Assembly (NCBI RefSeq): GCF_964355755.1
Contig: NC_092673.1
Coordinates: 5,208,001-5,272,000, forward strand
DNA: 64,000 nucleotides
Reading direction: 5' to 3'
Source of the DNA: Antedon mediterranea
Lineage: Eukaryota; Animalia; Echinodermata
The notes below the pieces were generated by a model, which saw nothing but the letters and a program-made list of their open reading frames with translations, did no database searches and was not told the origin of the DNA. Below are positions 1,216 to 26,190 of the stretch, one piece after another; within the stretch, counting starts at the first letter, position 1, and the number at the start of each line of letters is the position of its first letter. Both the position numbers and the translations under genes were made by a program.

Positions 1216-4200
1216 GTATGTAGGCCTACAGTCTAAAGCTCTCGATTCTACACTATTAAACTTTATGTGTGTGCCCATATATAGACAAGATGATGTCATA
1301 TCACTACCATATTTGGGCACATCATACTTTTTTTGTCAAACTAGTTTTATAGTGTAGACAGAGGTTTATATCAAATGGTATGGTCCAGGTCTGAGGTATT
1401 GTACCCGAGCTGACATGTCCATGCTCTTTGCATATCTTTATTGATTACTTACATCATCCACATTAGTGAAGGCCTGATTTAATTTTTTAAGAAGTAACAA
1501 ATAACATTCAAATTCGCATTATATTATGTCAACTCTATCCAGGGCGCGCATAATCATCTGCCTGCCGTCCTGGGGCCACGAAAACATCATGTCGGGCATG
1601 TAGAACTTCACTGGCAGTGGCCTGATGGGCAACCTCACAAATTTTTTTTTTTTATATATAATTCTGCAAGTTTATGCCGTCTATACTGAGGAAATTCTGC
1701 GGCCTGAGTTTAATGCGAGGTTGAGGTGGTACACTCTTACATAGCGTTTTCTTGTAACAGTACATACAAAATGGGCAGGGCTAATTATTCTAATGAGGAT
1801 CTGATAGAAAGCTGTTGCATGTGTCAAGATTACTAAATATAACCATGCATAACCTACAAGTTCCTAGGGGAATGCGGTAGATTAATTCACCGTGGGTATG
1901 AATAGGAAATAATCAAAGGCCTTGGAAATATGATAACGACCAAAATAATATTTTAAAATTAATATGTTGATTTGTATGTTATTTTATTATTTTGGTCAGC
2001 GTCTATCACATGGAGTACCGCCCAATATTTTAAAGATAAATTTTTTAAGCTGGAGGTTATTTTAAAAACTAAACTTGTGTTTGTCCTTGTATCGTGTACT
2101 ACTGTACTGTAGACAGAAGTAACGTTTTATATCATCATAGATGAAGTTTATATAACTATATATAGTAATACATTACTGTTACTGATGTTACTGATGTATA
2201 TTCAATTCACATTTATTCAATGTTATTGTATTCGAGCCATAGTCAGAATATGTGAACGTTTTTTAAATTGTGATTGGCATAAAATATTACAAATACTTCT
2301 TCAATTTCCTTTGCACAAAAAAGTACATTAGAGTTAAAGGTTTTCATAGAATTGTTCAGTTTAGACACACGATCAAGGAAATGGAATTAAACTGTCCTTG
2401 TAAAAGAACAGAAACATTACCAAAAAATATATATTATGTTCCTCAGTCAATATTCTAAAAATGTGCATGAAATATTAGTATATTTTTATATTTTACACTG
2501 TCTGCTGTAACATTATGGTTTTTATAGGTTTGATTTTAAACTAAACTTTTTATCAAAGCCTTATTTTGGAAAGACGAGTGCAGATAAATAATTATGCTTT
2601 CAGAAATTTACAATTTGAGTGGTTTAAATGCATTCCAATCCCAAAGTCCGGGGTTCAATCCTCACCTCGTGCTAGGCTAGGTTTGAGTTCAAATAACTTC
2701 ATTAAGACTTATTATTTTATAAGAACTCGTTTATACAATAGTTTATCCATTCTGTAATTGCCGAGTTACTGTACTTACTTTTGTGGGTGTATGTACATTT
2801 TAAATATGTGTACTGCATATCTCAATTTTCCTCCTGAGCGAAACTGCTCCTTTTTGCTATTCACCCCAGGCAATCAGTTTCACTCTCATCTCTTTCTAAT
2901 TGGTCCTTAACATTTTTTTCTTTTTTTATGAATTTCTTCATGAACCAAAAAAAAAACAAATCTAATATTACTGTTTTTTTTAAAAAAAAGAATTAAGGGA
3001 TGAACTGACTGCATTACGGAAAGATTTAGATGTTGCCAACAAAGACAATAATGAGTTGAACGAGGAAATGATCACATTGAAACATGAAGTAAGTATGGTT
3101 ATAACCAATACAAAGAACAAGTTTAAAGCTGTGTTTACACGCACTAGATTTATTACATTAAAACATGAAGTAAGTATGTTTATAAACAATACCAAGAACA
3201 AGTTTAGAGCTGTGTTTACACGCACTAGAGTTATTACATTAAAACATGAAGTATGGTTATAAACAATACAAAGAACAAGTTTAAAGCTGTGTTTACACGC
3301 ACTAGAGTTATTACATTAAAACATGAAGTATGGTTATAAACAATACATAGAACAAGTTTAAAGCTGTGTTTACACGCACTAGAGTTATTACATTAAAACA
3401 TGAAGTATGGTTATAAACAATACAAAGAACAAGTTTAAAGCTGTGTTTACACGCACTAGATTTATTACATTAAAACATGAAGTAAGTATGTTTATAAACA
3501 ATACATAGAATCAGTTTAAAGCTGTGTTTACACGCACTAGAGTTATTACATTAAAACATGAAGTAAGTATGTTTATAAACAATACATAGAACAAGTTTAA
3601 AGCTGTGTTTACACGCACTAGAGTTATTACATTAAAACATGAAGTATGGTTATAAACAATACAAAGAACAAGTTTAAAGCTGTGTTTACACGCACTAGAG
3701 TTATTACATTAAAACATGAAGTAAGTATGTTTATAAACAATACAAAGAACAAGTTTGGAGCTGTGTTTACACGCACTAGAGTTATTACATTAAAACATGA
3801 AGTAAGTATGTTTATAAACAATACAAAGAACAAGTTTGGAGCTGTGTTTACACGCACTAGAGTTATTACATTAAAACATGAAGTAAGTATGTTTATAAAC
3901 AATACATAGAACAAGTTTAAAGCTGTGTTTACACGCACTAGAGTTATTACATTAAAACATGAAGTAAGTATGTTTATAAACAATACATAGAACAAGTTTG
4001 GAGCTGTGTTTACACGCACTAGAGTTATTACATTAAAACATGAAGTAAGTATGGTTATAAACAATACAAAGAACAAGTTTGGAGCTGTGTTTACACGCAC
4101 TAGAGTTATTACATTAAAACATGAAGTAAGTATGTTTATAAACAATACATAGAACAAGTTTAAAGCTGTGTTTACACGCACTAGAGTTATTACATTAAAA

Positions 4201-7200
4201 CATGAAGTAAGTATGTTTATAAACAATACATAGAACAAGTTTAAAGCTGTGTTTACACGCACTAGAGTTATTACATTGAAACATGAAGTATGGTTATAAA
4301 CAATACAAAGAACAAGTTTAAAGCTGTGTTTACACGCACTAGATTTATTACATTAAAACATGAAGTAAGTATGTTTATAAACAATACATAGAACAAGTTT
4401 AAAGCTGTGTTCATACGCACTAGAGTTATTACATTGAAACATGAAGTATGGTTATAAACAATACATAGAACAAGTTTAAAGCTGTGTTCATACGCACTAG
4501 AGTTATTACATTGAAACATGAAGTAAGTATGGTTATAAACAATACATAGAACAAGTTTAAAGCTGTGTTCATACGCACTAGAGTTATTACATTGAAACAT
4601 GAAGTAAGTATGGTTATAAACAATACATAGAACAAGTTTAAAGCTGTGTTCATACGCACTAGAGTTATTACATTGAAACATGAAGTAAGTATGGTTATAA
4701 ACAATACATAGAACAAGTTTAAAGCTGTGTTCATACGCACTAGAGTTATTAAATTGAAACATGAAGTAAGTATGTTTATAAACAATACAAAGAACAAGTT
4801 TAAAGCTGTGTTCATACGCACTAGAGTTATTACATTAAAACATGAAGTATGGTTATAATATAAACAATATAAAAATAAGTCCTAGACTCGGGTACCCCGA
4901 GTAACAAGTTTAAAGCCATGTTCAGATACACTAGAGTTAAGTCCACCAACCCATTCATTTATGATTATGATTTTTAACATGTGTTTGTTTCTAAAGCTTA
5001 ACTTCTTCATATGGTAACCCTGATTTAACCTTTTGCTTTCATTAGTTTCATTATTATTCCTTCACTTTATTGTCCTATAGAATACAGACCACAGGAAGTT
5101 TGATTGTAAACTGCTTCTGGTTTGCTCTTTGGTATAACAGATTGGATTTAAAACCATTACCAAATTATTATTAAAAGGAAACAAACCAAACAGATAAATA
5201 ACCCTATACTCGCTGATGCATAATATAGACACTGGTACCTACCTTATGCATACCTCATGGGGTATTAAGTATTGTCTAAATCTAATTGTATAAAATAACA
5301 TCTAGCCAATATCACAAATTGACAGTGTCCCAATGTTTACAGTTTGATCTGATTTCCCAACTGCACAATGGTTCTCTGATAAAAGAACATATATTACATA
5401 ATATAGATAGAAGTCGTAATAAATGTGAGCATAGGCCCTGTTTCTGCTGCCAAGAAAATACCGTATTTTATACGGTATTTTTTGAATACCGTATAATACC
5501 ATATTTTTTTGGCAGCAGAAACTGAGCTCATAAAAAAATACCGTATTTTGTATACCGTATTTTCCCAACAAAATTTGTGGATAAAATATGGTATTTACAA
5601 ATTTATACCGTATTTTTTGTACCCTTTTCTGCTGCCATGAGGTCAACATCGTGTTTTTATTTTCTGTCGCTGTTAGCTGTTTTACACACGTGTATAGATA
5701 TTCGGCGAAAATGTGGAGCAAAGACGTCACAGTAATTACTATATAAATCTGTGTGGGGAAGGAGGGGGTGGGGAAGCTAAATAATGTCCGGCCAACTAAA
5801 AGGTAATAAAAGGGACAACCACATTTATAAAGACATTTCTAAAAAAATAAAGCAGCAGGAGTACGGAATAGACCAAAGCAAGTAAATTCAAAGCTAAAGA
5901 GCCTGCGTAGCAGTACAACATTGCAAAAGACAATAACTCGGGGAGGGAACGAATTACTTGTCCCCATTACGATGTTTTCTGTGCTCTCACAACATCTCTA
6001 TCACTAGGGCTAGGCTGTTGAAAGTGAGACGTAAAACTTCCTTTATTGCAACTTTTAATTATCGACCAAATAAATGAATGGCAATTTGGGTAAAATGGAT
6101 GAAATTTAACACGACCACCCAAGAAGTATTGTTAGCAGAAACGAGGTACTAAAAAAATACGGTATAAAAAATACTGTATTTTGAGCAGTTGCAGCAGAAA
6201 CAGGCCCATAGAGATATACTCTATGATGTGAGGCAATAAATATAGCTTAAACAACCTCTATACAAATTGTCCTAATTTCGGCTTTGGTAATGTAGGCTTA
6301 TAAATATATGGTTACCGTACCTAATACTCAGGCCTTGTCTTTTTAAAATTGTAGATACTCAGGCCTTGTCTTTTTAAAATTGTAGGTGTGCTACAAATTG
6401 CACTCCTCAATACATTCAGGGGTGCCGTAGGTGTGCCGTTTGTATTTTGGTGTGTAGAAGTTTACCAAATTTAAGTGGGTTGTAAATCACACTCCTCAAG
6501 GGCTATTTAGGAGTGTGTTAGGTGAGTGATCGCACTCATGAAAAGAAAAGGTCTGAATACTGTGTACTATTGGATGGTTTCATTGGTCCATTCCAATAAA
6601 ACATACATGTGTTGAAACTGAAAGTTATTATATTTCTCTTGTATCAACAAAGATCCACAATATAATTTTATTATCAAATATATTTATGTTTATAAAATAA
6701 TATGGTATTTCCAACACAGGTAATTTCCTTTTCAATTTAATAAATTTATCTGTTAGTATGCCTACTGACTCTGCTAAGAATAGATATATACCGTATCACC
6801 TCAAGTATAATCTCACTTTGAGTCTAATACAACCCCTACTTTATGTTTGATTTCACAAACAGACATATCCCGGGTGTAGTCCCAGTATTGTCTTTTGGTC
6901 TGAATACGGCCTCTCTGTAGCCAGTTCAGATGAGTTTTTGCAAGAAATGTTTACCAATCATTTTTTTTTTTACCCAGGGTTTCCCCCGGGTATAGTCCCA
7001 CCCAAAAAATCAGCCTAATTTCGTGTTCTAGGAGGTTAGAATTATAACAGAGGATATACGGTATATATTATGTAAAACTCCACCCAGTGATATACAAAAC
7101 AAAAAGTATCAAACATATGCAGACATCCTACCATTAGACCACTGGGCCTTTAATGGTATAGTTGAAATTCGATTAAATTAAGATACATTTTGGATAAACC

Positions 7201-10200
7201 TTTGAAATACTTATATGAATTTATATGACCATAAATTTATTTTTTATTTTGTATATATATATAATATAATATAATAACATAATAATAATATTTAATTTAA
7301 TGTTGAAAGCACCTTTTATTTACACATGTGAAAGTATAAATAAAATCCTTAATACCTTGATTCTCTGCCAAAATGTTTCAGAGGCCTAATACACAGTAAC
7401 TTCTGACCTGTGTGACTCATTAATTAATCAACAAAAATTAGTCAAGGCTGGATTGCATGTAAATGAAACTATTTGCCAATGATAGACCCACAGAAAAAAG
7501 ATTTTTTTTTTCTACCTTAGTTGTCGACATACATCTAAATTTAATGACACTTGGCAAAAGTTTGTTGGAACTCGGATAAAACAATAGTTAAATATTTTTG
7601 TATATAATCATGTGATGATATACAGAAGCATGTCTATTGCATTACACCATAATATAAAAATTTGTCTAAAAAGTAATTCAAAATTAACATATATTAGACG
7701 AGCAGGAAGTATTTGCTTAAATAAATTTTTGTTGTGTCACTAAATTTGAGTAATGGCACGAATACCGGATGAATAAAAGAAGAATTGCACATGAAGATTA
7801 TTGGAAACTGTGTCAGAGGTCTGATCATACCGATTCAGGGATAAGCCCACTCTGGGGTACAGTAAGCTTGACGTACTCCAAATGTTATGCCAAATTATGC
7901 AATCATATTTGGATTCAAGGGGCGCCCGAATATTGAATTCGCTACAGTGAAAGGTATAAGCCAACCTCATCAAAATGGAGGTAAAATATGAACAGGAAAA
8001 ACTGTACTGTAGGCCTACTACTTGAAACGTAGACAATGGAACAAAATAGTATGTGATGTTTTAGTTGCACTTTAAAAAAGAAACAAGAACATAATATTCA
8101 TAATAGGTAAAACAAAAAAAAGGTCATTTGCAACAGAGGTATTTCTTTTGTATTTTGATTTGGGAAAATGTTTATATTTTTTTTTTTTTTTTTATTTCAG
8201 CTTGAACAAGAACGCATATCAAATTCTGATTTGAAAGATGCACTAAAGCAGAGAGACCGCGCAATACAGCAATTTAGTAGAGGTAACCTCATTTGTCATT
8301 CATTAATACTGTACTGCGTTCACACAGCCTAAGTTGCTCATGAGCAAGAATCAGCTTGTCTTGAATATACTGTACTTGAACACATTTCTAACAGAGCTGT
8401 GTGCCATATACAGGTATCAATACCAACATTTTGCCAGCGCGAGAAAAGGGCTTTATAGTAGCACTAGTGGAGTTGTGGCTTGGTGGTTATAATGCTGGGC
8501 TACCAATCCAAGGGTCCTGGGTTCAAGTCCTGTCATGTCAGGATTTTTCTAATGACACATTACAACTCCATTTCTAAAGTCTTGTAATAAGACTTTGTTT
8601 ATGTAGAGCATCTTGTCTATTTGTTTGTCTTGTGAACAAGATTGCTACCTTTAAGAAGAATACTGAATGAATTAGCTTATGGTTATCCTTGGTAATTTTT
8701 CTAAATATATAAAAAACAAAAAACTTGAGAAATCAAACTTAATTCAAATTTAAGAATGCACTTACTATTGTGACACTGATAGTAACTAATGTCTAATAAA
8801 AACAATTACTATTTAAATTATCTGATTTTGTTTCAGTATCTACTCTGGTTGTTAACGAATTTGAAGAAATTAGTGAAAATTATGAGAAAGAGGCATTACT
8901 TCGCAAAAAAGCTGAGTCTTTTGCAGCTAAGGTAATTAAAACCTGGTAGATTATATACATTCTATACTCATAAAAACAATTTTGGTTTTAATATTTGGTG
9001 TAATCAGTATAGTACTTTCTTTTGCAGTTGTTTTCATTACAAAATTAGTAAATTATTTAACATAAATTTACCTTGAAACAATAAATAATAATTTACAATT
9101 ATTAAGTTAATCAATATGTACATCATGATTTGGAAATTGTGCAAATTAAATGCAATTAATTGTTTAATTTATTTATTCTTTATACTGAGTGACCTCTTCA
9201 TTACAAGACTATTTTTCCAGAGGGCCTAGTAGAAGATTATCATCTGGACATTGGGAGACAATCCCCTACTCTTGTTGAATTTTGCATAGTACCATGTTCT
9301 TTATCATGCGAATTACATGTATTCGAAGGACGAGGCGATGACAGTGCATTATCTTGCTTAAGGAGGTTCCATGTTCTTTATTATTTGCATTATATCCCAT
9401 CCGAAGGATGAGGCAATGACAGTGAAGTATCTTGCTTAAGGAAGATACAAGCATTGTGGTACAGACAGATCTTGAACACATGCCTTTCATATAATCGGAT
9501 ATTCCTTGGTAGATTCCTATATTGTTTAGCTAATATTAAATGATGGTTTAATATACAGTGAGGCTTTTTGTATTCCAGATGTACCAGGAAAAGAAAGTAG
9601 TAGCAGAGGTTGCTAGGCGGCAGAGTCAAATCCTTCTTGATCCACCAGATGACAAATTTACACAAGCCATGAAAGAAATTGAAGAACTCAATTCAATGCT
9701 GGAAAAGACCGAAACACAAGAAAAGGTAATGCAGTAATAATGCCGGTACCAATCTTTATTGTTTTAAAACCAACATGAAAATAAAAACATCTGTCATATT
9801 GACTCTGGTATAATCCCTTTCCTTACACAAGCCTGTTATTTTCTTGTTTGAGTGTATTGAAAATTCGAACCTTCAGGCAAACCAAAAATAAAGTTCTATT
9901 TTTAGAAAATAATCAATCAACTGATCTATTTATGTAGCACTGTTACTCACTATCAGTGATACAGCACATGTTAACAGTTATAATTATACATACTTACTTT
10001 TTAAATAGTGATATCAACACCTGTAATTTGTCAACACCTAAATATTGATGTATTAACACACCTGTTATTAGTTATTCACACCTGTATATCAATGTACAAA
10101 CTTTTAGTAGTGATACACCATCTGCTGATAGGATAGGAAATTGCATTAAAAAAAATAACATGTAAACTATGATATTGAAATTTAGATTCAACCTGTAAAT

Positions 10201-13200
10201 AGTGCTCAAGAACCTTCTGTAAATGACATTCCAACATCTGATAAAACTCCATCTGATGTTGCTATTGAATCAGATTCAGTAGTAGCAGATCCCAATGAAG
10301 ATGTCAGTAAAGATGATGCCATTAACCAACATACAGGTGATGTTAAGTTAAGTAAGACAGATGTATCAGCAGATGTCAGTGAGGTTTCTGCTGAAATGCC
10401 TTTGCAATCTGGCAGAAATGGTGAATCACTGATAATAACTGGAGGATCAGAAGTAACTGACAAAAAAGCTGAACCTGATGAGAAGCAATCTAGTAAACCT
10501 GAAGAACCTACATCTTCTAACAAACCAGAAATACCTGAAAGAACTGTATCAGCTGTCAAAGTTGAAGAAACTAACTCCTCTTGTAATAAAGAAATACTTG
10601 AAACAAATGAAGAAGAAAGCAAAGCTGAAGAATCTACAGAAATACATGAAGAAACTGTGTTAGCTGTCAAAGTTGAAGAGACTATGTCTGCTATCAAACC
10701 AGAAATACCTGAAAAAAATGTAGAAGTTGGTAAAGCTGAAGAACCTAAGTCTTCTAACAAACCAGTAATACCTGAAAGAACTGTATCGGCTGCTAAATAT
10801 GAAGAACCTAAGTCTTCAAACAAACAAACTGAAAAGAATGTAGAAGTTGGCAGTTCTGAAAAGCCAAAGCCTTCTAGCAAACCAGTAATACCTGAAAGAA
10901 CTGTATCGGCTGCCAAAGTTGAAGAACCTAAGTCAGCTAACAAACAAGAAACACCTGAAAACAATGAAGAAGTTGGCAAAGCTGAAGAGCCTAAGTCTTC
11001 TAACAAACCAGTAATACCTGAAAGAACTGTATCGGCTGCTAAATCTGAAGAACTTTCTAAAAAACCCAGTCAGGAAACATCTTCCAAACTCTCTGAGGTA
11101 ACTTTCAGAAAACTTTTTAAACAGTTTCCACGTTCCTGGGTAGTGACAAGACTATATACTTATTTATGAGATATTATACAGACTAATAGAGAAAAATGCT
11201 GCCTAGTAATCCCTAACAAGTATTATACCTTCATTGATTGATAGTTTAAAATGTTTTAAAATGCAGTCTGAAAACTGGATGTTAGTGTTTGACATCTGCT
11301 GTTGATAAATTAATTACCATTATGCACTTTTCTGATAATAGATACTTTTTATTATAAAGTACAACAGAAATCATGATTAATACTAATTATAATTCTCTAT
11401 GATAATTTATTTTTACAGAGCAATGACCAAATGATTAAGGTATTTAGAATATTTCTATCAAATATTTATGGTGTTAGTATTAATAGTGGTCAATAGTAAT
11501 ACCATATTCAGACACAATCAAATTGTAGAGAGTATGATTAAGTTTATGCCATATCACAATATCGGCTAACATTTCTGGATTCGCGTTTAAAAGAAAATGT
11601 TTGCGATCTGATTATAGGAGTAAAAAAGCACCGAACTGTACCGAGTAACAATTGCGATATTGATTATGCATTGCGAATTGGTGTGATTATGTAATGTTTG
11701 TCTGAATAGGATTTACTGTGGCTCCATATTAAGAAATAAAATATATTGTAAAACTGTATATTGTACACTAAATGTTTGCACTCGAAAGCCGCACACCTAA
11801 CTGGAAAATAGATTCACCCTATTTAATCAATGTGTATGTTAACATAATTATTTTGTTGGTATTAAATTTGAAATATATTTATATGTATATAAACACACAG
11901 GCACAGAACAATAATTCTAAACCACCCGGTGATATACTGAAATTTAATTAATTAAAACTGAAATGATAAGATGAGGGGAAATCTGTGAGAATGAGAAAAA
12001 GTTTGTGCACTCTTTGTGTTACCAATCAGTGTACCATGTCCCACACAACTGGCTTAACCTATATATTGTGCCAGTTCTGCAGTACATATCATTTCGAAAC
12101 CTGAGCTGCACTGACGAGATCTAATAAGATCGAAACAGTACTGTCTGCAGATTGGATATATATAAATAAAAAACCGAATTACTGAAAAAAATGACAATTC
12201 TGTCAGGGTATCAGTATATATATATTTTTCATTTTTAAATAATTAAATATTTGTTTTATTATTGCATTCAGAAAATTCTAACTATGATGGAAAGTATTAC
12301 TGATACTGAGGTGAATGAACTCTTGTATATACATGCACTATTGCAATAAAAATGAATTGAATCTTTCTTTTGCTGTATTAGAAAAGTACCACTTGTAGTA
12401 TCTTAGAGCTTAACCTTTGTCTACACTATTAAATTAACCAAATATGGTAGTGATATGACATCATTCTGTCCATAAATGGGCACATCGTATTTTTTTGTCA
12501 CATAACGTTTGATACGGTAGTGTAGACAGAACCTTAGAGTCGGAAACAATTCCTACATTCTATAGGTATTGATGGTGGGAGGGTGGTACTAGGCAGGGGT
12601 ATCTAGTCATACATTGTGACCAGGTTAAAGCTAAAGCAACAACAAAAACCTATGCTAAAGCTCTGTCTACACTATCAAACTAGTTGACGTTGACTAGGAC
12701 AAAAAAGTGTGATGTATCCAAATATAGTAGTAATATGACCAAATATGGTAATGATATGACATCATCATGTCCATATTTGGGCACATCACATTTTTTTTTC
12801 ACATAAAGTTTGATAGTGTAGACAGAGCTTTATTTAATATAGACTGCTAACACACAAGGGCAAATTATAGTTAAACTAATCATATATATTTGCAGTTCTT
12901 ATTTTTAACATTTATGTATATATTACTTAATAATTAATCATTTTTACAGGGAACATATTCTTTTTCTATTATATTTTAGCAATTTATTATTTATATTTAC
13001 AGCATATTTACTTTAGTATTTGTATCTATCTGTTGTGATCTGTTTCTATACAGTAGCGCCTCTCCTTGGAATACCCATTCAGAGGAGGACATATTGTTGT
13101 TTCTTTGTTTGTTTTATCTTTATACTGGGTGACCTCTTCAGTCAAAGACTGATCTCCCAGAGGGCCCAGTTGGTGATCAGTGGCTGTGATAAGTAACCCC

Positions 13201-16200
13201 CTACTCGTCTCGAAAGATGTACTAGGTTTTTTAAAGTGCACACGAGCAAGTTGTGTACACTGGACCTACGGTTTATAGTCCTTATCCGAGAAGACTCGTT
13301 CTACCACCAGAACCATGGAGTGAGTGAGCCTCGAACCCCTGCCTATGTTATGGCTACGTGATTACGGTTCCACTGTCTTAACCGCTCGGCCACTCACTCA
13401 CTCGCGCGTAGTTAAAAATCTACCGATGAAATCATAAATTTTTCACTTGAGTCTCTTTAATATGTTTTCTACTGTTTTATGTCGTAATTAACAATTTTAT
13501 ATTTCAAAATAACGTTTATGTTTTCCTTCCAAAATGTTATACAATTTTGGTTTAATTTATTATATATTTAATATATTTTATATTTATTAGTCTTTGTCAT
13601 ACAACCTGATGTGTTTTAGTGTTAGTGAAAATGCAACATATTTGTATAAAGTATTGGAACTAAATGGCTTACTATTTTTAGAAACTTCTTTTTGTTAGAC
13701 CTTTATGCTATCCTAGCCCCTTATTATAGACCACATTTTTGAAGCAAGCAAAATTTGAAAACAAATGACATGGAATGCTCAAAATGTAAACATTGCAATT
13801 AAAGAGATATTACCATTTCATCCCCATTATATGCTAAACAGAACATGCATAGAATGAACCAAATAATGTTACCATAAAGTAAAATGTCATACATCATCAT
13901 ACAAATTCAGGATAATAACATGTTACAAAAAACTAGATAAATAATAGTGCTAGTAGAATTGTCTATATTGTCACTTGCAAACACCTCGCAGTGATCTGCT
14001 CGTATATAAATAAAAAATGAGTTTGAGAAGCTATAGATATGCTGATTATCTTTTAAAAACAACCCAGTCGAAACACAGCTTCTATTTACCTCTACTCTCA
14101 TTTATTTATTTTTCTATCGTTTACTTAGACCAACAATGAATTGAACAACACAGAAGACAAAGACCAAAAACCAAAGAAAGAATACGTCCACAATCTGGAA
14201 AACAAGTTAAGCATTGCACAGGAGGAGAATGAGTGCCTTGAACAGCAGATAAGTGAGCTGCAAGATGAGCTGAAGAAAGTTAAGATTCAGTTAGAAGTGG
14301 CAGCTGAGAAGTTACGTCCACCACCACCACCTCCTCCACCACCCCTTCCTACTGTAAAGCATCCATTAGAGTAAGTGATCTTTCCTTTTTTTATAAATCT
14401 GAAATGTATTTGTAAGTTTTAAAAATGTGCCCATATAGGGACATGACGATGTCATATCACTACCATAATTGGGCAAATCACTACCATATTTGGGCACACA
14501 AACTAGTTTAATAGTGTAGACAGAGCTTTATATTGGCTTTATTGTTAAAACATTGTTTGTTTCACTGGAAAGTATTCCTGTATTAGACTGTCCTCTGACT
14601 TACCCAAACTTTAGCAGCATTGGTCAAATTTTTCTGAAAAAGAGTAATTTAAAAAATTTAATTGAGTTTATTTATTTTTTAGTCTTTTGAAGAAGATTTT
14701 GAAGAAAAGTCCAGATGATAAAAAAGACAAAGGTAATGTATTTACAATATTGTAAGTAACAAAACAAAGATAATTTAGTGTTTTATGAAATTTATTAATT
14801 TAGATTATTTGAATGTTAAAAATACTTATTTGGTTGTTTTGTTTGTACAATTTGATAATACAGGAAGAAAAGCTAAAGCTCAAGCGGGTATGGTATATTT
14901 AATTTTGCTGTTTCAACATATATCAATTTTTTCATTTTTAAAGATATTTTCTTGCTTTCATTCTTGTTTTTGTAGTTTTGAATGTTCTTATCTTCTGTAC
15001 ACATTTCTAAATTATAAAGTAGAAATTATTTAGATTTTAATCATATCATTAAAAATAAAATCATCAATCATTTGATCATATCTCATTTACATTTAAAACT
15101 AAAGAAAATATATAGAATTACATTAGAAACCATTTTATAAATTGCTTAAGCCCGGCGCAAACTAGACCTTTTGGCTGAGCTAACTGGCATGAGTAACACT
15201 TGGCTCACTAAAATATTTACCGCAAACTGTGATCGCGTTCTATCGCACACTAAACGCCTTCAGTACGCGATTTTCTGATTGGATAATTACTTACTACGCT
15301 ATACGGCACGCTCTGACATATTATAATAAATCAGAACATGTCATGCGCAGTGGAATATTTTAGTGAGCTATCTGCTCACGTTCGGCACACACTTGAGGAA
15401 CGCATGGCCGATTCCTCACGAATTCCCCGGCGCACACTGTGAGTCAGGTATTACTCGTGCCAGTTGGCCGAAAGCTCTAGCTTTAGCTTTATATAGCACT
15501 TTTCCAAGCTCATCAAGGCACTTCACAGTAGATTCGTGTTAAAATGTGCTTTATAGATGCAACACATGAAACAACTTTCACAACAACTCTCTCTTTTCGA
15601 CCTGCCATCAAACGGTACTAATCCTCCCTCAGTGACAGGGGTTGATGTGGACCAGTACACCAGGGTAACCCCTGCTAAGTTGATGTGGACCAGTACACCA
15701 GGATAACCCCTGCTAAGTTGATGTGTACCGGTACACCAGGGTAACCCCTGCTAAGTTGATGTGGACCAGTACACCAGGGTTAACCCCTGCTAAGTTACTG
15801 CCATCTTAGTTTTTTTTAGCCATCTAGAACAATAAATAATGAAATTGAATATAGTGACCCAAAACTTCTATATAAAACTTAATAATAGTGTACTTTTATT
15901 TGAATATTAAAGAATTTTTATTATTTGTTTTGTTTATACAATTTGATAAATAGGCTTCCAATTTCGTTTTGCTGTTTAAAAGAAATTACAAATTTCATTT
16001 ATTTGTTTTGTTTTTCCTATTGTTGTTAATTTGCTCATCCAAAATGATGTTTTCATCCTTATTCAATGACACATTAATTTATTTATTTTTTTAACTTTTA
16101 TTTTCTTTATTCATTTGGTAATTTCCATCTTCCCCCCCCCCCCCCCCACAAAAAAAAAACCATGAACAATGAAGATTAATAAAATCTGATTGTGACCAGT

Positions 16201-19200
16201 TTGTAGTTTTGATAAGTTAATCACTTCTGCAGAAAAAAAAAATTTTCACTTAAAAAAGACAAAACAGTTAAATTCACCAAAAACGCATTGACTGCCAGAC
16301 AATTTGACTATTTTTTCCTTTAAATTAAATTTTTTCAGGTACCGGTAAATATTTTTTACATTTTTTTGTCAAAGTGGATAACTATCATGGAACGTCAAAA
16401 TGGCATATTCAACAAACCAAAATTTTGAGGGGGAAACTATCTTTAACCATCTTCTTAATTATAATTAGCACTGTAGATAAATATAATACCTGTGTTGTTG
16501 TATATTGTTTGTAAACGGTATGTGATACTGTAACTAGTCTGGATGCACCATTGTTTGTGGTGTTGGTCCCACTTTCTTTGAGGATGTTAGAGTTTATTAA
16601 TCAATTTCAAGGCATTCTTTAACTTTAAGTCACTGTATATATTGTATTTGTAAACAGCTATATTGCCGTTGTTTTTTTTATATAATATTTATTAACAATT
16701 GGCAGACTACTTGAACTGCAGCCTACAAAGCAACAATCTTTGTTCATTCATTCACTCAAACTCATACCTGATGAAACAACGTTTGATTAATACTGTACTA
16801 ATGTTTGTGTTGCCAGATCCCTTACAGGAAAAGCATACTGCCTTAATAGATGAAATGATGAACAGGATAAAGAAAGGAAGAGTTGGACTTAAACCTGTAA
16901 ATGAGGTAAGCTTGCCTGAAACAGGAAGTATTAGAATGGTTTTCAAGAGTCATGAAGAGAATGGACATATAGAAATATGATCTGGTTTTGGGCCAGTATT
17001 TGAAAAAGTATCTATCCTTAAATGTTAGGGATTAGTCACTTACCATCTTATAAATGTAATTACAGAGACTTAGCTATTTGTTGTAGATTTGAACATTTAA
17101 AAAAAAAAGAAAATAAACTTTGTAATATTGTGATTGAAAATGATTATATGAAAAAAACACGATTAAAAATAAAATTCAAATGTCTTTCTGTATTTTACAT
17201 TTGAAGCAACCAAAGCCTATTGAAAGAGGGAGAAGCTCTAAACTGAGTCGCAAAAACACTCACACACCAGCCTTTATGGAACTCAATGGACTTTTGGTAG
17301 GTGACAATTCATTATTATACTAGGTATAAATCCAACTCCTAAAAGATGAATGCAGTCTGTCAGAGATTGTAGCTAAAGCTCTGTCCACACTATCAAACTA
17401 GTTTGACAAAAAAAGTGTGATATGATCACACTTTTTTTGTCAATTGTCAATATATTTAATATAGTAGTGATCGAGTCAAATGGCGAGCGGTTAAGGCAGG
17501 GGCGCCGTTTAGCATACATCGACAAGAGTTCGGGCCCACTCGCTCCTAGTTCTGTTGGTGGCACAAGTCTTCTCAGATAAGGACTGTAAACCGTAGGTCA
17601 CAGTTATAACCTTTAAAGAACCTAGTTAATTATTCAAGAAGAGTAAAGGGTTTTGTCACATAAAGTTTGAGCTTTAGATTGTTTGTCTCAAGTGAAAACA
17701 GAAGTAACAAAACTTCCTATTTGAGATGTATAAAGAACACTTGAAAAGACTTGAAACCATCATGTGAAACTGTTCATAATAATGAAACCATTTTTAATAA
17801 ATGAAACAAATGTATTACAATGGGAGAAATACAACCAAGCTCTAAGAACAAACACATTATAATAAAAGAATATAAGAATCAGATTGAATATAAAAATCTT
17901 TTCTTTTAAATTTGTGTTTGTATTTATATGAAGATATTAATATATTAGGCCTAACATTATAAGAAATACTGGCAGCTAAAAAGTTGTAAAAAGATTAGTT
18001 ACCTTTAATCTTCAAAACTTGAAACACCAACCCCCACAATTCCTTAATACTTACTTCCTTCTAATATCATCAATAATTAAAAATATGTACAGTATTATAC
18101 TTGTGGACTGATATTCCAATGTGTATATGTATCTTTTTTATTTCAGAAAAAGAACAATAAAAACCAGCCTCCATTAATCAAATCCTCGTCCGAATCCGAT
18201 GCTTCTCCAGAGTTAATGAAGATTATGAACCGTAGACGTCATAAGTTAGATATAGAGGGATCTCCCAAAGAGAATGGACAAAAAGGTAAGATTTTCAATT
18301 TGTTTATTTTATTTGCTCAATATATATTGTTGCTGATGAATACTTCTACTTGATTAAAAAATTACCTGAAATTGTTTTATTATGATTTTTTACATGACAG
18401 ACATTTCCTTTAAAATAAAAAGCTGGCTATAATATATTCAAAACAGCAACTATAATTATTATCATAATAAACTGTTTTTATCAGATAATATGGATATTTC
18501 AAATGGCAATGCAGTTAGTCCTCCTCCAATCAGGTTTGTTGAAAGGATTGTGGGATTGCTAGCATGTGAATGATATGAAAACAAAAACTTGCATTGTGAT
18601 TATACAACTGCCTTGCATTGTTCTTATCGTATTCATGCAGTAGAACCGTTATGAAGGGGACACTTTCAGACTGTTACTGTCCCTTTTACGTTTAACAGGA
18701 GATTGTCCCGTTAATAGGGCAGTTGTCCCCAAAATAGGGGTGTCCCAATAAACAGGTTTCTACTATTTGATTTGATACAATTCCTCTCCTTTTTATTTAT
18801 CTAATATTACTAATAGGATTGTAATTCAGTGTAGTCCCATCTGAAGATCATTGCTTGGGATTCGAACAACTACTTTTTGTAAAAAATTCTCATACAATTA
18901 TTTGGGACATTACTTTATTTTGTTTGTTTATGTATTATTGCATGTCTGTAGTAGTATTATTTGGTTTTTATTCATATATGCTTGCGATACTTTTTTTGTG
19001 TTAAGACTGATTAATATTTATTCATATATTTTATCAAGAGATTGATTGAATGCAGGTTTTAGTAAATAGTAAAACTTTTCCAACATAAAATTGTTTTACT
19101 TTACAGGAGAAACAGCCTCTTAAAGAAAACAAAACTAAAGACACCACCAGCAGTTGCTAAGAAACCAGTAACAAGGTCAGTGTCTTCTACGACAGCACGA

Positions 19201-19920
19201 CCTTTCAACCTTAATCATTCCAGAAGTCGGGTAAGAGCTCTACAGGTCAGATACGAGGAAGCTTGTTCCGCGGAAGAAACCGAATCAATCGGTAGTTTAT
19301 CACCAATGAACTCACCGACCTTTGACTTGCCTGATTTGTTTCCTTCTGCTACTCCTTCTTTATCGTCGTTATCGCCCGCATCTGTCAAGAGGAATGGCAT
19401 AATCGGAGTACCTCAACCATGGACTCCTTCCAGGACTTCATCTAGTTCCAGCACGGCATCGGGAAAAGGCACACAATGGATGGTACCACTTATTTCTCCT
19501 ATATCGCCAGCAACTTCCTTTTCATCTCAATCGTCATGGTCGTCATCCTCATCATCGTCGCCCCCACCGATTCCTCCACATGGGCCATTTTCAAATATAC
19601 CATCGCATCATACTAACGGCTATTCTCGATCCTCCTCGCCGGCAAATTCACAAATTATCGAACCTATACAGAACAGAACTAAAAGCTCAAGATCGCCTTT
19701 GTCGTTTCTTTTAAAATCGCCAAGTTTTTCTCGATTTTCAATGAATAGTAACAATGAGCTCACAGAAAGTGGCGACAATCATATATACGAAGCGTACGAG
19801 TTGTTTGAAGAGGAAGAAGATAATCCATTGTATGAAAGCATAGACCAGCCTTGTAGAGATTATAAGATACGCGAAAGATATTACCCAAATTGTAATAACC
19901 CTTTGACAAATTCAAGGTAA
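1071..19920 (+). CDS. SHTN1: Shootin-1-like protein, multi-exon, 5'-partial (upstream exons probably outside the window)
   Basis: Exons 1071-1215, 2991-3088, 8201-8282, 8837-8931, 9579-9725, 10186-11097, 11419-11439, 12272-12310, 14129-14370, 14683-14732, 14864-14887, 16817-16905, 17207-17296, 18147-18285, 18485-18533, 19107-19920. All GT-AG and phase-consistent (3036 nt). Peptides match recalled shootin-1 motifs: RVSTLVVNEFEEISENYEKEALLRKKAESFAAKM..RRQSQILL, a poly-Pro run after the coiled coil, DEMMNRIKKGRVGLKPVN, ELNGLL, ELMKIMNRRR. Confidence 0.85.
2991..3088 (+). CDS. SHTN1: shootin-like coiled-coil exon (ELRDELTALRKDLDV...ITLKHE)
   Basis: Phase 1 to 0, heptad pattern, GAA|gtaagt donor. 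Acceptor is A-rich (ttttttttaaaaaaaag). Confidence 0.75.
3070..4860. repeat. 81/77-bp minisatellite containing an exon end and splice donor, 23 copies of CATGAAGTA
   Basis: Unit ttacattaaaacatgaa-gtaagtatgtttataaacaatacaaagaacaagtttaaagctgtgtttacacgcactagagtta. Confidence 0.97.
5434..6207. mobile_element. non-autonomous DNA transposon (PIF/Harbinger-like), 774 bp
   Basis: 17-bp TIR GGCCCTGTTTCTGCTGC / GCAGCAGAAACAGGCCC (1 mismatch), ATA/ATA 3-bp TSD, subterminal AAATACCGTATTT repeats. Confidence 0.85.
6330..6540 (+). repeat. dispersed repeat, second copy at 40037-40203
   Basis: About 170 bp shared (aggccttgtctttt...gcactcctcaatacattcag...gtgagtgatcgcactc). Confidence 0.8.
8201..8282 (+). 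CDS. SHTN1: shootin-like exon (LEQERISNSDLKDALKQRDRAIQQFSR)
   Basis: Strong poly-T tract, ttcag acceptor, G|gtaacc donor. Confidence 0.85.
8469..8700 (+). mobile_element. tRNA-derived SINE (family B)
   Basis: tggcttggtgg and gggttcaagtcc boxes. The body gactttgtttatgtagagcatcttgt also occurs reverse-complemented at about 36070-36140. Confidence 0.7.
8837..8931 (+). CDS. SHTN1: shootin-like exon (VSTLVVNEFEE...LRKKAESFAAK)
   Basis: LRKKAESFA shootin motif; tttcag / AAG|gtaatt. Confidence 0.9.
9579..9725 (+). CDS. SHTN1: shootin-like exon (MYQEKK...RRQSQILLDPPDDKF...)
   Basis: ttccag / AAG|gtaatg; RQSxxLL motif. Confidence 0.9.
10186..11097 (+). CDS. SHTN1: large symmetric E/K/S/P-rich repeat exon of the shootin-like gene (304 codons)
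   Basis: 912-nt open frame bounded by tttag and GAG|gtaact, phase 0-0; internal EEPKSSNKPVIPERTVSAAK repeats. Confidence 0.75.
11419..11439 (+). CDS. SHTN1: 21-nt microexon (SNDQMIK)
   Basis: ttttacag / AAG|gtattt, frame-preserving. Confidence 0.55.
12106..12150 (+). ncRNA. type I hammerhead ribozyme
   Basis: ctgca-CTGACGA-gatct(aata)agatc-GAA-acag(ta)ctgt-C-tgcag. Complete catalytic core, three stems, GUC cleavage triplet. Confidence 0.88.
12272..12310 (+). CDS. SHTN1: 39-nt short exon (KILTMMESITDTE)
   Basis: attgcattcag / GAG|gtgaat, frame-preserving. Confidence 0.55.
12659..12829. mobile_element. Harbinger-type MITE copy
   Basis: Full TIRs and internal 21-bp subrepeats. Confidence 0.88.
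13095..13403 (-). mobile_element. tRNA-derived SINE (family A)
   Basis: A box TGGCCGAGCGG, B box GGTTCGAGGC, A-rich tail; related copies at 17468-17652 and 26665-26916. Confidence 0.85.
14129..14370 (+). CDS. SHTN1: shootin-like exon: coiled coil plus poly-proline
   Basis: ...ELKKVKIQLEVAAEKLRPPPPPPPPPLP; cttag / GA|gtaagt. Confidence 0.9.
14683..14732 (+). CDS. SHTN1: shootin-like exon (DLLKKILKKSPDDKKDK)
   Basis: Phase 2 to 1, tttag / G|gtaatg. Confidence 0.8.
14864..14887 (+). CDS. SHTN1: 24-nt microexon (GRKAKAQA)
   Basis: tacag / G|gtatgg, symmetric phase 1. Confidence 0.6.
15149..15485. mobile_element. MITE with long imperfect inverted termini
   Basis: aactggcatgagtaacacttggctcac pairs with gtgagtcaggtattactcgtgccagtt; inner ctcactaaaatatt pairs with aatattttagtgag. 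Confidence 0.7.
15641..15797. repeat. 38-bp tandem repeat, 4 copies
   Basis: gttgatgtggaccagtacaccagggtaacccctgctaa. Confidence 0.9.
16817..16905 (+). CDS. SHTN1: shootin-like exon with WH2-like motif (DEMMNRIKKGRVGLKPVNE)
   Basis: Matches the recalled vertebrate motif EEMMDRIKKGVHLRPVN. Confidence 0.9.
17207..17296 (+). CDS. SHTN1: shootin-like exon (...PAFMELNGLL)
   Basis: ttgaag / TTG|gtaggt, 90 nt. Confidence 0.75.
17468..17652 (+). mobile_element. tRNA-derived SINE (family A), nested in a MITE
   Basis: tggcgagcggttaag, gagttcgggccc, shared body ttctcagataaggactgtaaaccgtaggtc. Confidence 0.8.
18147..18285 (+). CDS. SHTN1: shootin-like exon (...ELMKIMNRRRHK...)
   Basis: tttcag / G|gtaaga. 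Confidence 0.85.
18485..18533 (+). CDS. SHTN1: shootin-like exon (DNMDISNGNAVSPPPIR)
   Basis: Phase 1 to 2, needed to bridge the flanking exons. Confidence 0.75.
18638..18764. mobile_element. Tc1/mariner-pogo-like MITE relic
   Basis: cagtagaacc..aagggacact / gtgtccc..ggtttctact; relatives at 42126-42357, 52388-52540, 53432-53672, 63545-63652. Confidence 0.6.
19107..19920 (+). CDS. SHTN1: probable terminal exon, Ser/Pro-rich disordered tail
   Basis: ttacag acceptor, long open frame ending TAA at 19918-19920. AG|gtaatt at 19916 could instead be a donor. Confidence 0.75.
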
Positions 19921-22981: not shown

Positions 22982-25900
22982 ATGGCAACATCACTTGTTC
23001 AACCATATGTAGACCAGGAGAATGCAACATCTGTGAATGCATCAAGTAGAAAGTCAAGTACATCAGCAGCTTCTAGGCCTAGTAGTCAGTAAAATTCTAA
23101 TGCTTTTGAACTGAAATAATAATAATAACCCAACCAACTGAATACTGGGATTACAATGATTTTAATTCATCCTCAACTCCTACATCCTCCTCAGCATTAT
23201 ACCCCCTAAATAATTAACATTATACCCCCTAAATAATAAACATTATACCCCCTAAATAATCAGCTTTATACCCCCTAATAATCAACATTATACCCACTAA
23301 ATAATCAACATTATACCAAAGTAACACAAGAATCTCCTGTTCAATTTTCATTCAAAACACAGTATTGGAAGTACAGGGTTAAAAGGTCAAACTGGGCGAC
23401 GTCATTGCACAGCATGGAGCAGCGCCCTCTCCAAACTATGAAGTCAAAACTATTAATTCTTATAGAGGGCTCAGTCAATTACTCTATCCCCGCTATAGTA
23501 TTAGCAGATCCCCTCTATGATTTTGACTTTCTAATTTGATGCGGACGCGCTACTCCATGGCTCACAATGGCGCCACCCATTAGCTCTATTCTAAACAACA
23601 ATGCCTTTCGAAATTGTTACAAGCTTTGGACGAACAGGAGATTCTTGTGTTACAAGTTCTTTGATTATACCCAATAATAAATTGGCATTATACCTCTAAA
23701 TAATCAACATTATACCTCTAATAGCAATTGGCCATGTTGCGGATCTCCTTACATTTAAAATATCCATGTTGTTGCCGCAGCCACCTATTTCACATTCTAG
23801 TCTTCTGCTACATGTTAAATCTCTATGCATACAAAATGTATTCCTTTCACATTATGTTTCAGTAATAGGAAAGACATTCTCCAATGCATCAAGTCTAGCT
23901 ACGCCTCGTCGTGCCTTTGGTGACCTCAGTAATGTGACGAGCACAGCCAAGAAACCCAGTGGTGCTATAAAGAAAGGACCAATCAATAGGAAAATGCCGT
24001 TGAAGAAGTCAACACTGACTCCAAGTGCACAGGTACCATAAAATTGATATTAGGGAGGTTTCAAAACGCTACAAAATCATATTCGTGTGACAGCTCAATT
24101 TTGATAAATAGCAGTTTTTAAAGTCCTCACTCGCTTTGATGTTATGCTAACCAAGCAACATATACAGCAATCATATTTTGGATGGTGCCCTCAATATTTC
24201 GTCGCCATGCGAAACAGATTTTTACTGGCTTATGAACATACGACGTTTTCGTTTTCGTATTTGTAGCATTGCGAAACCTCCCTAATAATTTCACTTTGGT
24301 ACAAAAAAATTATGTTTTGGTATTATTAGAGATTTAGTATAACATTCACACACCAGGCAATTGGACTGCTTTGAACTACGCCCTTGTCCAACAGGCCTCA
24401 AGACCAAAGTATTCAAACTAATTAAGATACCATGCATCTTATAAATAGTTATTTTAAAAAATTAATATAGCACAATATTGACATTTGGTATACTTTTTAT
24501 TAGAACCCTTTCATAGAAGAAGAACATAATTCAGTGCCCTCTATTTTGCATTGAAACATAGCTGTGTCTGTAAACTTCAAGGTGCTGCCAAAACAATTTA
24601 GAGATCTTTTTAAATTGGTTACGATGAGACCATGTCTACCTAATATTTTGTTTAGTGTATTTTATATATATTTATAGTTATGAGACAAACACAATGCATG
24701 TTCTACTTTTCTAGTCCATTAAAAAACCAAAGGCCAAGTTAATAGACACTACGAAATCGGCTAAACCTGAAGATGCCTATCCTCCAATTGAAAGTATGCA
24801 CATCTTTGAGGACATCGAATCTGGTAATAACAAGTTTTTCTTCTTTTAGTTTGTATGTAAATTGTATTAACATGTGAGCATGAAACTGAACACCAACCAA
24901 CTAAATCTCTGTAACATTATGTGACAAAAAATGTGATGGGCCCATATATGGACATGATGTCATATCACTACCATATGTGGGCACATCACACTTTTTTTTC
25001 AAACTAGTTTGATAGTGTAGACAGAGCTTAAGAAGATGGAAGCCTACAAAGAGTTGCTATCTACATTAGATTTGCACAAAACCAGGAAGGCCCATCTGCA
25101 TATGGAGCAAAAGATTATCATCTTCACCGTTTATAGATATAATTAATAATTGATTTCTTTCACTGGGGTGTTTGCCTGTCAAATTATAGGCCTACTATAA
25201 ATTGATAGTGCTTTAGTAATACATTTGAATGTATGTATGAAAGCTTCTATTCTGTGTAATATCATTGTACAATTTCTGTATAGGTAAATAATCGTGACAG
25301 TCTAGCTTAATTATTTTGTAGAATTTGAGTTACCACCTGAGCACCGTCTATCAAACATGAACCTTTTTAAACGTACCCTGCCTATAATGCAGACAGGGCT
25401 ACGAGATGTGGATGATATAGTTCCAGACTTCTCTTTTCTGACCCTGCATCCAATCGAGAGACCATACACAGACACATCAGGTACTATTTACATATCTAAT
25501 CAAAGAGATGATTCTCTGCCATGTGTGGGTTTGAATACAGATCAAATCGGTTTTATCCTTGAGGCAAGACATTTTACTTGCATTTGCCTCTTTCCACCCA
25601 GGTGTACAAATGGGTACCTGGTACAGTTTAGACACAACTTTACATTGATTACTAGCTGCATTATGGGAGCTATGTTTCCATATGCGTTTGATCCAAAAAT
25701 GACCAGGGTAATAATATATACAGCGTTTAGAGATTTCGCAACATAAGGTGCTTTATAAATCCAGGATATTGTTTAGTTTTGCTTAGTATGCAATACAGTA
25801 TAATAATAGCTTTTTAGTGCTGGCACATAATACAGTAACTTTTTATGTCAATAACGTATGATTTTATTTTGTTGCAATATGTAATAATACAATGTGTGAT

Positions 25901-26190
25901 TACCCCCCCAAAAAAAGGCCAATTTACGCAGATGAGCAGTAACGTAAGCGTGAAACCGCGTAGCTTGTCCCACATAGAATCTGTATCTATCCTTAGCGGA
26001 AACCGCCGGTCCGCTCACTGGTGCCTATCAGTTCCGTTCACATAAGCATACCTTAAGATGTGTTGTTTCTTCCACAGATTTTACCTTGCCATCTGAATCA
26101 CCACTCTCTGATCAGCTACTGGATCTGCCTTCCGTTAATGATGTGGATATTCTTGACATCAATTCTTTACTAAAGGATTTGGAAATCTAA
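22982..26190 (+). CDS. PTTG1: Securin (PTTG1-like separase inhibitor), 5 coding exons, 217 aa
   Basis: Exons 22982-23084, 23863-24032, 24715-24823, 25322-25480, 26078-26190 (654 nt). N-terminus MATSLVQPYVDQEN, D-box RRAFGDLSN, separase-binding segment DAYPPIESM..EFELPPEHRLS (vertebrate DAYPEIEK..FDLPEEHQIA), C-terminus LDLPSVNDVDI. Confidence 0.88.
23321..23653. mobile_element. foldback MITE inserted in a 21-bp minisatellite
   Basis: Perfect 22-bp inverted repeat gtaacacaagaatctcctgttc / gaacaggagattcttgtgttac, with further internal palindromy. Confidence 0.8.
24051..24284. mobile_element. MITE
   Basis: TIR tagggaggtttc..cgctacaaa / tttgtagc..gaaacctcccta. Confidence 0.8.
25505..25765 (+). 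mobile_element. degenerate CORE-like SINE with L2-type tail
   Basis: ccttgaggcaagacatttt...ccacccaggtgtacaaatgggtacc; 3' end agcgtttagag...aaggtgctttataaat. Confidence 0.6.

Follow-up and report, generated by a model that had tools for sequence, protein, structure and literature searches.

The occurrence of a complete hammerhead ribozyme motif on the sense strand of an intron in a shootin-1-like gene of the feather star Antedon mediterranea raises the question whether the motif serves its host gene or has been carried there by a mobile element. The window considered here, a stretch of 64,000 nucleotides of genomic DNA, had been read in a first-pass annotation which considered a role in splicing or transcript level and, equally, a passive retroelement relic. 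The follow-up favors the relic, because the hammerhead belongs to a high-copy repeat: we consider it probable that the intron harbors a solo copy of a non-autonomous, Penelope-mobilised element of the non-LTR retrozyme type, which is probably a passenger. A regulatory role as the leading reading is disfavored by the high copy number, the family-wide invariance of the ribozyme and a predicted block of its active fold. The features on which this view is based are collected in Table 1.

Table 1. Positions of the features discussed, counted from the first letter of the window.
Feature	Position	Strand	Remarks
21-nt exon (SNDQMIK)	11419-11439	+	in all three RefSeq isoforms read
Host intron, 832 nt	11440-12271	+	
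273-nt repeat unit	11886-12158	+	TATATAAA at 11886 and at 12159; hammerhead near 3' end; ends approximate
Repeat head, deepest-covered part	11897-11950	+	as judged from contig depth
Blocking segment	12071-12082	+	complementary to 12145-12155; predicted to sequester helix I 3' strand and cleavage-site C
Extended motif aligned to Rfam HH9	12094-12167	+	weak outer helix I: 12101-12104 with 12152-12155
Helix I 5' strand ctgca	12106-12110	+	pairs with tgcag 12146-12150 (5 bp)
Core CTGACGA	12111-12117	+	
Stem II region	12118-12131	+	
Core GAAA	12132-12135	+	
Helix III 10-nt palindrome	12135-12144	+	
Predicted cut after C12145	12145	+	cleavage-site C
(TA)n, TATATAAA, AATAAA (12165)	12159-12170	+	most family copies end at 12158-12168
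Optional tail, ~47 nt	12169-12215	+	2.9-4.7% of peak depth; resembles Penelope tail
39-nt cassette exon (KILTMMESITDTE)	12272-12310	+	included by isoforms X1 and X2, but not by X3
MITE-like copies (1/2)	1247-1368, 12414-12526, 12656-12832, 14413-14530, 17374-17424, 24921-25032, 35429-35954		
MITE-like copies (2/2)	37229-37363, 39063-39236, 41786-41924, 44162-44234, 47194-47400, 52664-52833		

The identity of the host gene rests on its homologues, and Pfam profiles give no shootin name for it. The translation of the exon at 9579-9725 matches a RefSeq protein of Antedon mediterranea with 100% identity. Among named relatives, the shootin-1-like proteins of Diadema antillarum and Anneissia japonica come closest, the latter with 75% over residues 25-295. 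The position in a sense-strand intron between exons of 21 and 39 nt, as originally annotated, agrees with the RefSeq models and the homologues, the isoform structure being that of the RefSeq annotation models. Both microexons comprise whole numbers of codons and are included in the models XP_071947186/7, and the predicted cut site lies 126 nt from the 3' splice site of the intron. In an alignment with three models from Anneissia and Diadema, nothing corresponds to the 39-nt exon. Its exonisation from the repeat was considered and rejected, because it begins 57 nt beyond the repeat end and lies in nearly single-copy DNA. A further exon of the gene, 24 nt in length (14864-14887), is also alternative and is skipped in isoform X2.

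The hammerhead motif at 12106-12150 of the plus strand is real, and all its parts were found again at the coordinates first assigned to them. The CUGANGA, GAAA and UH cores are present, the three-helix junction is open at helix I, as expected of type I, and the G10.1-C11.1 pair is formed by G12118 and C12131 (the numbering, with G8, A9, G12 and C17, follows standard usage). A scan of both strands with a type I descriptor returned this single site in the 64-kb window, in agreement with the one copy noted before, and 22 loose matches were obtained in 300 simulations of 64 kb each under an order-2 Markov model, none of them with stems of at least 4/4/3. In an Rfam scan of the window, no family reached its gathering score, including RF00163, the family proposed for checking the motif; the best match was Hammerhead_HH9 (RF02275) with 33 bits against a gathering score of 52 (E=3.3e-6, relaxed level). 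Note that overlapping matches within one clan were reduced to the best one, so that a match to RF00163 may be masked by HH9.

Some details of the annotated stems had to be revised. For stem II, the helix and its G-C closing pair stand, but the proposed 5 bp with a 4-nt loop are better read as 4 bp with the 6-nt loop UAAUAA, as in the HH9 alignment. This helix was compared with look-alikes from metagenomes, which served for helix II pairing alone (six loci found, L002 and L005 being near-duplicates, of which five were aligned). In the alignment with the window, 23 of 24 cells are paired, with compensatory changes at the two free pairs, the other two pairs being fixed by the search pattern. The look-alikes have only a core of 30-38 nt in common with the window, and nothing of the repeat; their ORFs gave no match to a reverse transcriptase (RT), glycosyltransferase and DDE being found instead, and viral contigs searched with the core pattern gave no match. 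For stem III, the palindrome was recognized correctly, but the implausibly small 2-nt loop is not required, because the helix of the monomer can close by A15.1-U16.1 and 2 bp over a GUAC tetraloop. The palindrome is predicted to form a 10-bp duplex between two copies at -13.4 kcal/mol, as compared to +1.3 kcal/mol for the monomer hairpin, and cleavage as a dimer is therefore plausible as judged from the energy model. Monomers are not inactive in principle, since the available part of one study describes co-transcriptional cleavage by coral and mussel retrozyme hammerhead monomers at about 0.8 and 0.1 per min, and poor cutting by those of axolotl (PMC7229834).

Among the look-alikes, L003 shows two inverted hammerhead-like copies (994-1078 and 609-684) about 400 bp apart beside a (TG)n stretch, a PLE-like arrangement, and L001 contains a type I hammerhead at 748-886 (33.7 bits to RF00163), ~54 nt upstream of which another CUGAUGA...GAAA core is found.

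The label of a minimal hammerhead does not fit this motif. In the min-HHRs of Penelope-like elements (PLEs), as characterized in PMC4209133, one additional nucleotide separates A9 from G10.1, helix II is long and helix III is reduced or absent, whereas A12117 directly abuts G12118 in the window, helix II is 4-5 bp long (4 bp in the preferred reading) and helix III is present. The motif matches the shape called canonical for metazoan type I hammerheads in the same source, with a short helix III and a small palindromic loop (PMC4209133). Echinoderm min-HHRs are already listed there for a sea urchin and a sea star, and no report of a crinoid or Antedon hammerhead, ribozyme or retrozyme was found in the literature covered, which took in few subscription papers.

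Contrary to the initial reading, the hammerhead does not stand alone. Contig depth places it in a non-coding repeat of ~330 bp (about 11886-12215), the flanks of which are represented by single contigs. Six of the eight runs covering the region, all consisting of assembled contigs and coming from three studies, were aligned; runs X1 and X4 derive from one sample, perhaps the same source as the window. Contig records on 11380-12400 numbered 865 (X1), 263 (X5), 1338 (X6) and 925 (X7), again from three studies, and those on 12040-12240 numbered 509, 85, 325 and 324 in four runs. Depth is flat over 11380-11869, rises hundreds- to thousands-fold at about 11897-12205 and then returns to its former level. 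Runs X5 and X7 show no cover at 12290-12400. The summed depth is 409-1398x that of the flank at the ribozyme, which indicates an order of magnitude and not a copy number, and 1,832-7,723x at the repeat head, likewise not a copy number. With alignment seeds favoring query-like copies, these values are read as "hundreds or more" only, and hundreds of distinct contigs indeed carry the repeat.

The boundaries of the repeat are equally apparent. Loose contig ends cluster at 11897-11914 and at 12158-12168 and lead into unrelated AT-rich DNA; the 5' head is fixed, with unrelated upstream flanks and no gradient into an ORF. A further (TA)n stretch (12216-12225) directly follows the optional tail, so that (TA)n is found at both ends of the insertion, and a target-site duplication cannot be called inside such a sequence. 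In run X6, one contig joins 12168 back to 11928 via 29 head-like letters and thus represents a head-to-tail junction. It is the only such contig, contigs tend to break in repeats, and the window locus itself is a monomer. Other joints were each seen once (12158 to 11999, 12158 to 12036 or 12047, and one strand switch) and look like partial tandems and an inversion.

Several minor features of the repeat may be recorded. The head (11905-11950) is 4-8x deeper than the ribozyme part, and it may be common to more than one family or constitute a shorter element by itself. With the majority letter G at 11924, a small hairpin could form at ~11915-11928, and an ATG opens in the tail (12191-12215). A few contigs of runs X5 and X8 continue beyond the repeat end of the window in shared sequence, which could be the start of the body of a parent element.

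This anatomy, with the tail and (TA)n ends, supports the link to Penelope-like elements and retrozymes drawn in the first-pass annotation. The likeness to metazoan non-LTR retrozymes, as presented in the available parts of PMC7229834 and bioRxiv 10.64898/2026.07.22.740005, extends to a non-coding unit of a few hundred bases with a GC content below 50%, a canonical type I hammerhead with a short palindromic helix III, a high copy number, and the occurrence of solo monomers and intronic copies. Animal retrozyme units measure 170-400 nt (PMC7229834, in part), and the unit at this locus has 273 nt, with a GC content of 0.35 over 11886-12214. Unlike the arrays of retrozymes, the shootin locus consists of a monomer with a tail; tandem arrays are a defining retrozyme trait, and the evidence for them here is the one head-to-tail junction. 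Against a retrozyme, the unit folded as a circle is predicted to gain no stability over shuffled sequences (z about -0.5), unlike the self-paired circles described for retrozymes.

A likeness also exists to the pseudo-LTR ends of endonuclease-bearing PLEs, for which the accessible parts of PMC4209133, PMC8557442 and PMC11167929 describe a type I hammerhead near the end, an optional tail, AT-rich or (TA)n targets and many dispersed single copies. The tail of ~47 nt slightly exceeds the 30-40 bp given for the optional tails of PLEs (PMC8557442; PMC11167929, both in part). The repeat could thus be the truncated end, i.e., pseudo-LTR plus tail, of an autonomous PLE, without an independent family of small RNAs or circles, and would then also be a passenger of the intron. 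We regard this as rather unlikely. It would account for the optional tail, for the few contigs running past 12215 in shared sequence and for the limitation of the evidence for tandem arrays to one junction, and most PLE hammerheads are single dispersed motifs (PMC4209133, in the part available). Nevertheless, the ribozyme has the canonical and not the minimal shape, the repeat begins with a sharp common 5' head, which follows unrelated upstream flanks and reaches the highest depth, and one head-to-tail junction does exist (X6). Moreover, an autonomous PLE would carry an RT and GIY-YIG ORF between pseudo-LTRs, and the repeat is flanked by single-copy intron DNA on either side; no RT or GIY-YIG domain was matched by Pfam in the 23 ORFs scanned of the 117 listed in the window, in line with the lack of an RT noted initially. 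The two readings grade into each other, because retrozymes have been proposed to be derivatives of pseudo-LTRs (bioRxiv 10.64898/2026.07.22.740005, seen in part). If the locus indeed represents a retrozyme-type element, the combination of a canonical ribozyme with a Penelope-type tail in one unit speaks for this proposed origin, and a crinoid family joins the known animal hammerhead repeats.

For such a Penelope-mobilised retrozyme-type element, a mechanism may be proposed from the anatomy of the repeat and from the literature. Source loci with at least two units would be transcribed, and their ribozymes would release unit-length RNA, with helix III best formed between two copies via the 10-nt palindrome. 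A Penelope-type RT/endonuclease, supplied in trans, would then nick AT-rich DNA and copy the RNA in, yielding (TA)n-bounded units with an occasional tail. The copy in the window possesses a single ribozyme and would thus not release a unit by itself. Activity at the locus would probably be low, and related systems appear to be compatible with this: in the portion of the Xenopus study available, eight of nine dimers tested did not cleave (bioRxiv 10.64898/2026.07.22.740005), and the accessible text on an anole PLE describes insertion in vitro without a need for ribozyme cleavage and RNA-seq ends none of which were seen at the cleavage site (PMC11167929). Solo monomers of Xenopus retrozymes are described as common and evenly spread, with ~43% of copies being intronic (bioRxiv 10.64898/2026.07.22.740005, in part), so that sense-strand intronic copies are to be expected by chance. 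By analogy, such a copy need not cut.

Predicted folding is in keeping with low activity. In the isolated motif, the active secondary structure accounts for ~0.1% (about 1e-3) of the predicted ensemble, because the CUG of the core pairs with the 5' strand of helix III; the absolute value means little, as nearest-neighbor models omit loop-loop and tertiary contacts and folding kinetics. In longer sequence contexts, the blocking segment is predicted to pair in all 15 folding windows with a start at 11990, 12040 or 12070 (probability 0.28-1.0), and in seven of the ten with a start at 11700 or 11887 (0.45-0.93); the helix is weak (0.01-0.06) in the other three, all of which end at 12150-12156. The active fold stays at or below 3e-4 in all 25 windows containing the blocker. 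Position 12081 is A in the window copy and G in most of the family depth; within the blocking helix, G12081 would still form a G-U pair and the A of the window copy an A-U pair. The hammerhead is therefore predicted to be mostly misfolded in the pre-mRNA, implying slow or no cutting relative to the splicing of the 832-nt intron. Blocking by a complementary stretch is described for animals as an exception, seen in some mussel circles, in the available part of PMC7229834. If the locus is a retrozyme-type passenger, the blocking helix it brings along suggests a way in which intronic copies on the sense strand can be tolerated.

The variation within the family indicates what the intactness of this copy means. 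Family variants of at least 1% within 12106-12150 are confined to C>T and G>A changes at two CpGs (12115/6 and 12131/2), at 0.3-4.1% of depth, and they include the core positions G8 and G12. CpG methylation drives C>T and G>A transitions, and the pattern is as expected from passive DNA decay. The family thus keeps its ribozyme while some copies decay as DNA, and this decay is undercounted because alignment seeds favor similar copies. Over 11897-12180 (284 nt; run X1), the window copy shows 12 differences from the majority letter among the entries listed, beyond which there are 6 substitution and 21 indel entries, and none of the 12 lies in the ribozyme. The probability of observing no difference is ~0.15 over 45 nt and ~0.06 over 67 nt, before allowing for the choice of this copy as an intact example, so the absence of majority differences leans weakly toward constraint. 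With the ribozyme nearly invariant throughout the family, the intactness at the shootin locus is no sign of host selection.

The insertion is probably older than the split from a close relative, organism B (runs X6 and X7), as judged from its contigs. In this organism, one contig proceeds from unique intron into the repeat as far as 12037 (31 differing letters, 33 gaps), and another one from X6 spans 12177 to 12400, so that the unique flanks are bridged up to 12037 and from 12177, and both insertion ends are seen in this one relative. The divergence of the intron between the window and organism B is ~5%, similar to the ~4% by which the window copy departs from the family. Organism B apparently also carries a local duplication of 12177-12226 at the orthologous site.

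Cleavage by the hammerhead, either alone or together with family RNAs via the palindromic helix III, might still have been co-opted to tune how often the 39-nt exon is included or how abundant shootin mRNA is, but we consider this improbable. The sense orientation, the position 126 nt upstream of a cassette exon skipped by isoform X3 and missing from the three outgroup models compared, the ribozyme without majority differences, and the presence of both insertion ends in organism B at ~5% intron divergence would all be compatible with such a role, and the RECK intronic hammerhead (PMC6155905, in the part available) and the CPEB3 ribozyme offer precedents. Hundreds of near-identical genomic copies combined with a lack of orthologous conservation had been named at the outset as refuting a host-gene role; contig depth indicates a copy number of this order in a family that keeps the ribozyme almost invariant anyway, and as to conservation, the insertion appears to be shared with organism B. 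The intactness of a copy picked for being intact is not significant, and the alternative 24-nt exon of the same gene has no ribozyme match nearby. According to the predictions, an upstream stretch of the repeat blocks the active fold, and the private A12081 replaces a G-U by an A-U pair in the helix responsible, contrary to what selection for cleavage would favor. The likeness to the amniote intronic HH9/RECK hammerheads (RF02275; PMC6155905, in part), consisting of the best Rfam match, a similar helix I, a 6-nt loop II and the intronic location, is offset by the low score (33 vs. 52 bits), the weak palindromic helix III and the situation in a high-copy repeat. Furthermore, domesticated intronic hammerheads are recognized by deep conservation according to the accessible text of PMC6155905, and the insertion was seen here in one close relative only. 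Coverage of the intron by run X5 (flagged "RNA?") is even and shows no splice joint, which makes this run uninformative on expression. Should co-option be true after all, a transposon ribozyme would have turned into a splicing regulator, and the locus would offer a test of trans cleavage by genomic hammerheads. Very improbable, in our view, is the early domestication of a recent retrozyme insertion, in which the hammerhead would pair via its palindromic helix III with abundant retrozyme RNAs, such that the level of a selfish RNA would set the cleavage of the shootin pre-mRNA and the inclusion of the lineage-specific 39-nt exon.

A chance likeness to a hammerhead, to which the score below every Rfam gathering score and a minimum-energy fold differing from the active one might point, has next to no probability and is effectively refuted already by comparable stems in 0 of 300 simulated windows, the E value of the HH9 match, a core almost invariant over hundreds of contigs and the compensatory changes in helix II among the look-alikes.

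Apart from the intron, the shootin gene shows some further peculiarities. Its 912-nt exon (10186-11097), which contains internal 63/126-bp repeats, occurs in a diverged form in Anneissia and is absent from the Diadema models. An 81-bp tandem array at 3074-4849 (22 copies, 95% match) has a unit spanning a shootin exon end and its GTAAGT donor, which results in many duplicated 5' splice sites. At the 3' end of the gene, an open frame of 284 codons (19107-19917) is unused by the three RefSeq isoforms read, all of which terminate in GETAS in another frame; the Diadema shootin models have a long proline/serine-rich C-terminus, and an unannotated long shootin isoform using the 19107-19917 frame is possible.

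Two other genes were noted in the remainder of the window. The one on the minus strand (34000-61712) encodes a JmjC domain (PF02373, E=2.4e-9), and we take it to be likely of the KDM3/JMJD1 type. The other is a short gene on the plus strand (23700-26190) with an RxxL destruction-box-like motif (RRAFGDLSN), which is possibly securin-like. Large minisatellite arrays are located at 27199-31901, 38319-38962, 55387-56236 and 61833-62433, with units of 36, 35, 23 and 99 bp, respectively, and at least 12 copies of a dispersed MITE-like family, which has terminal inverted repeats as well as internal repeats of 21 bp, occur in both orientations.
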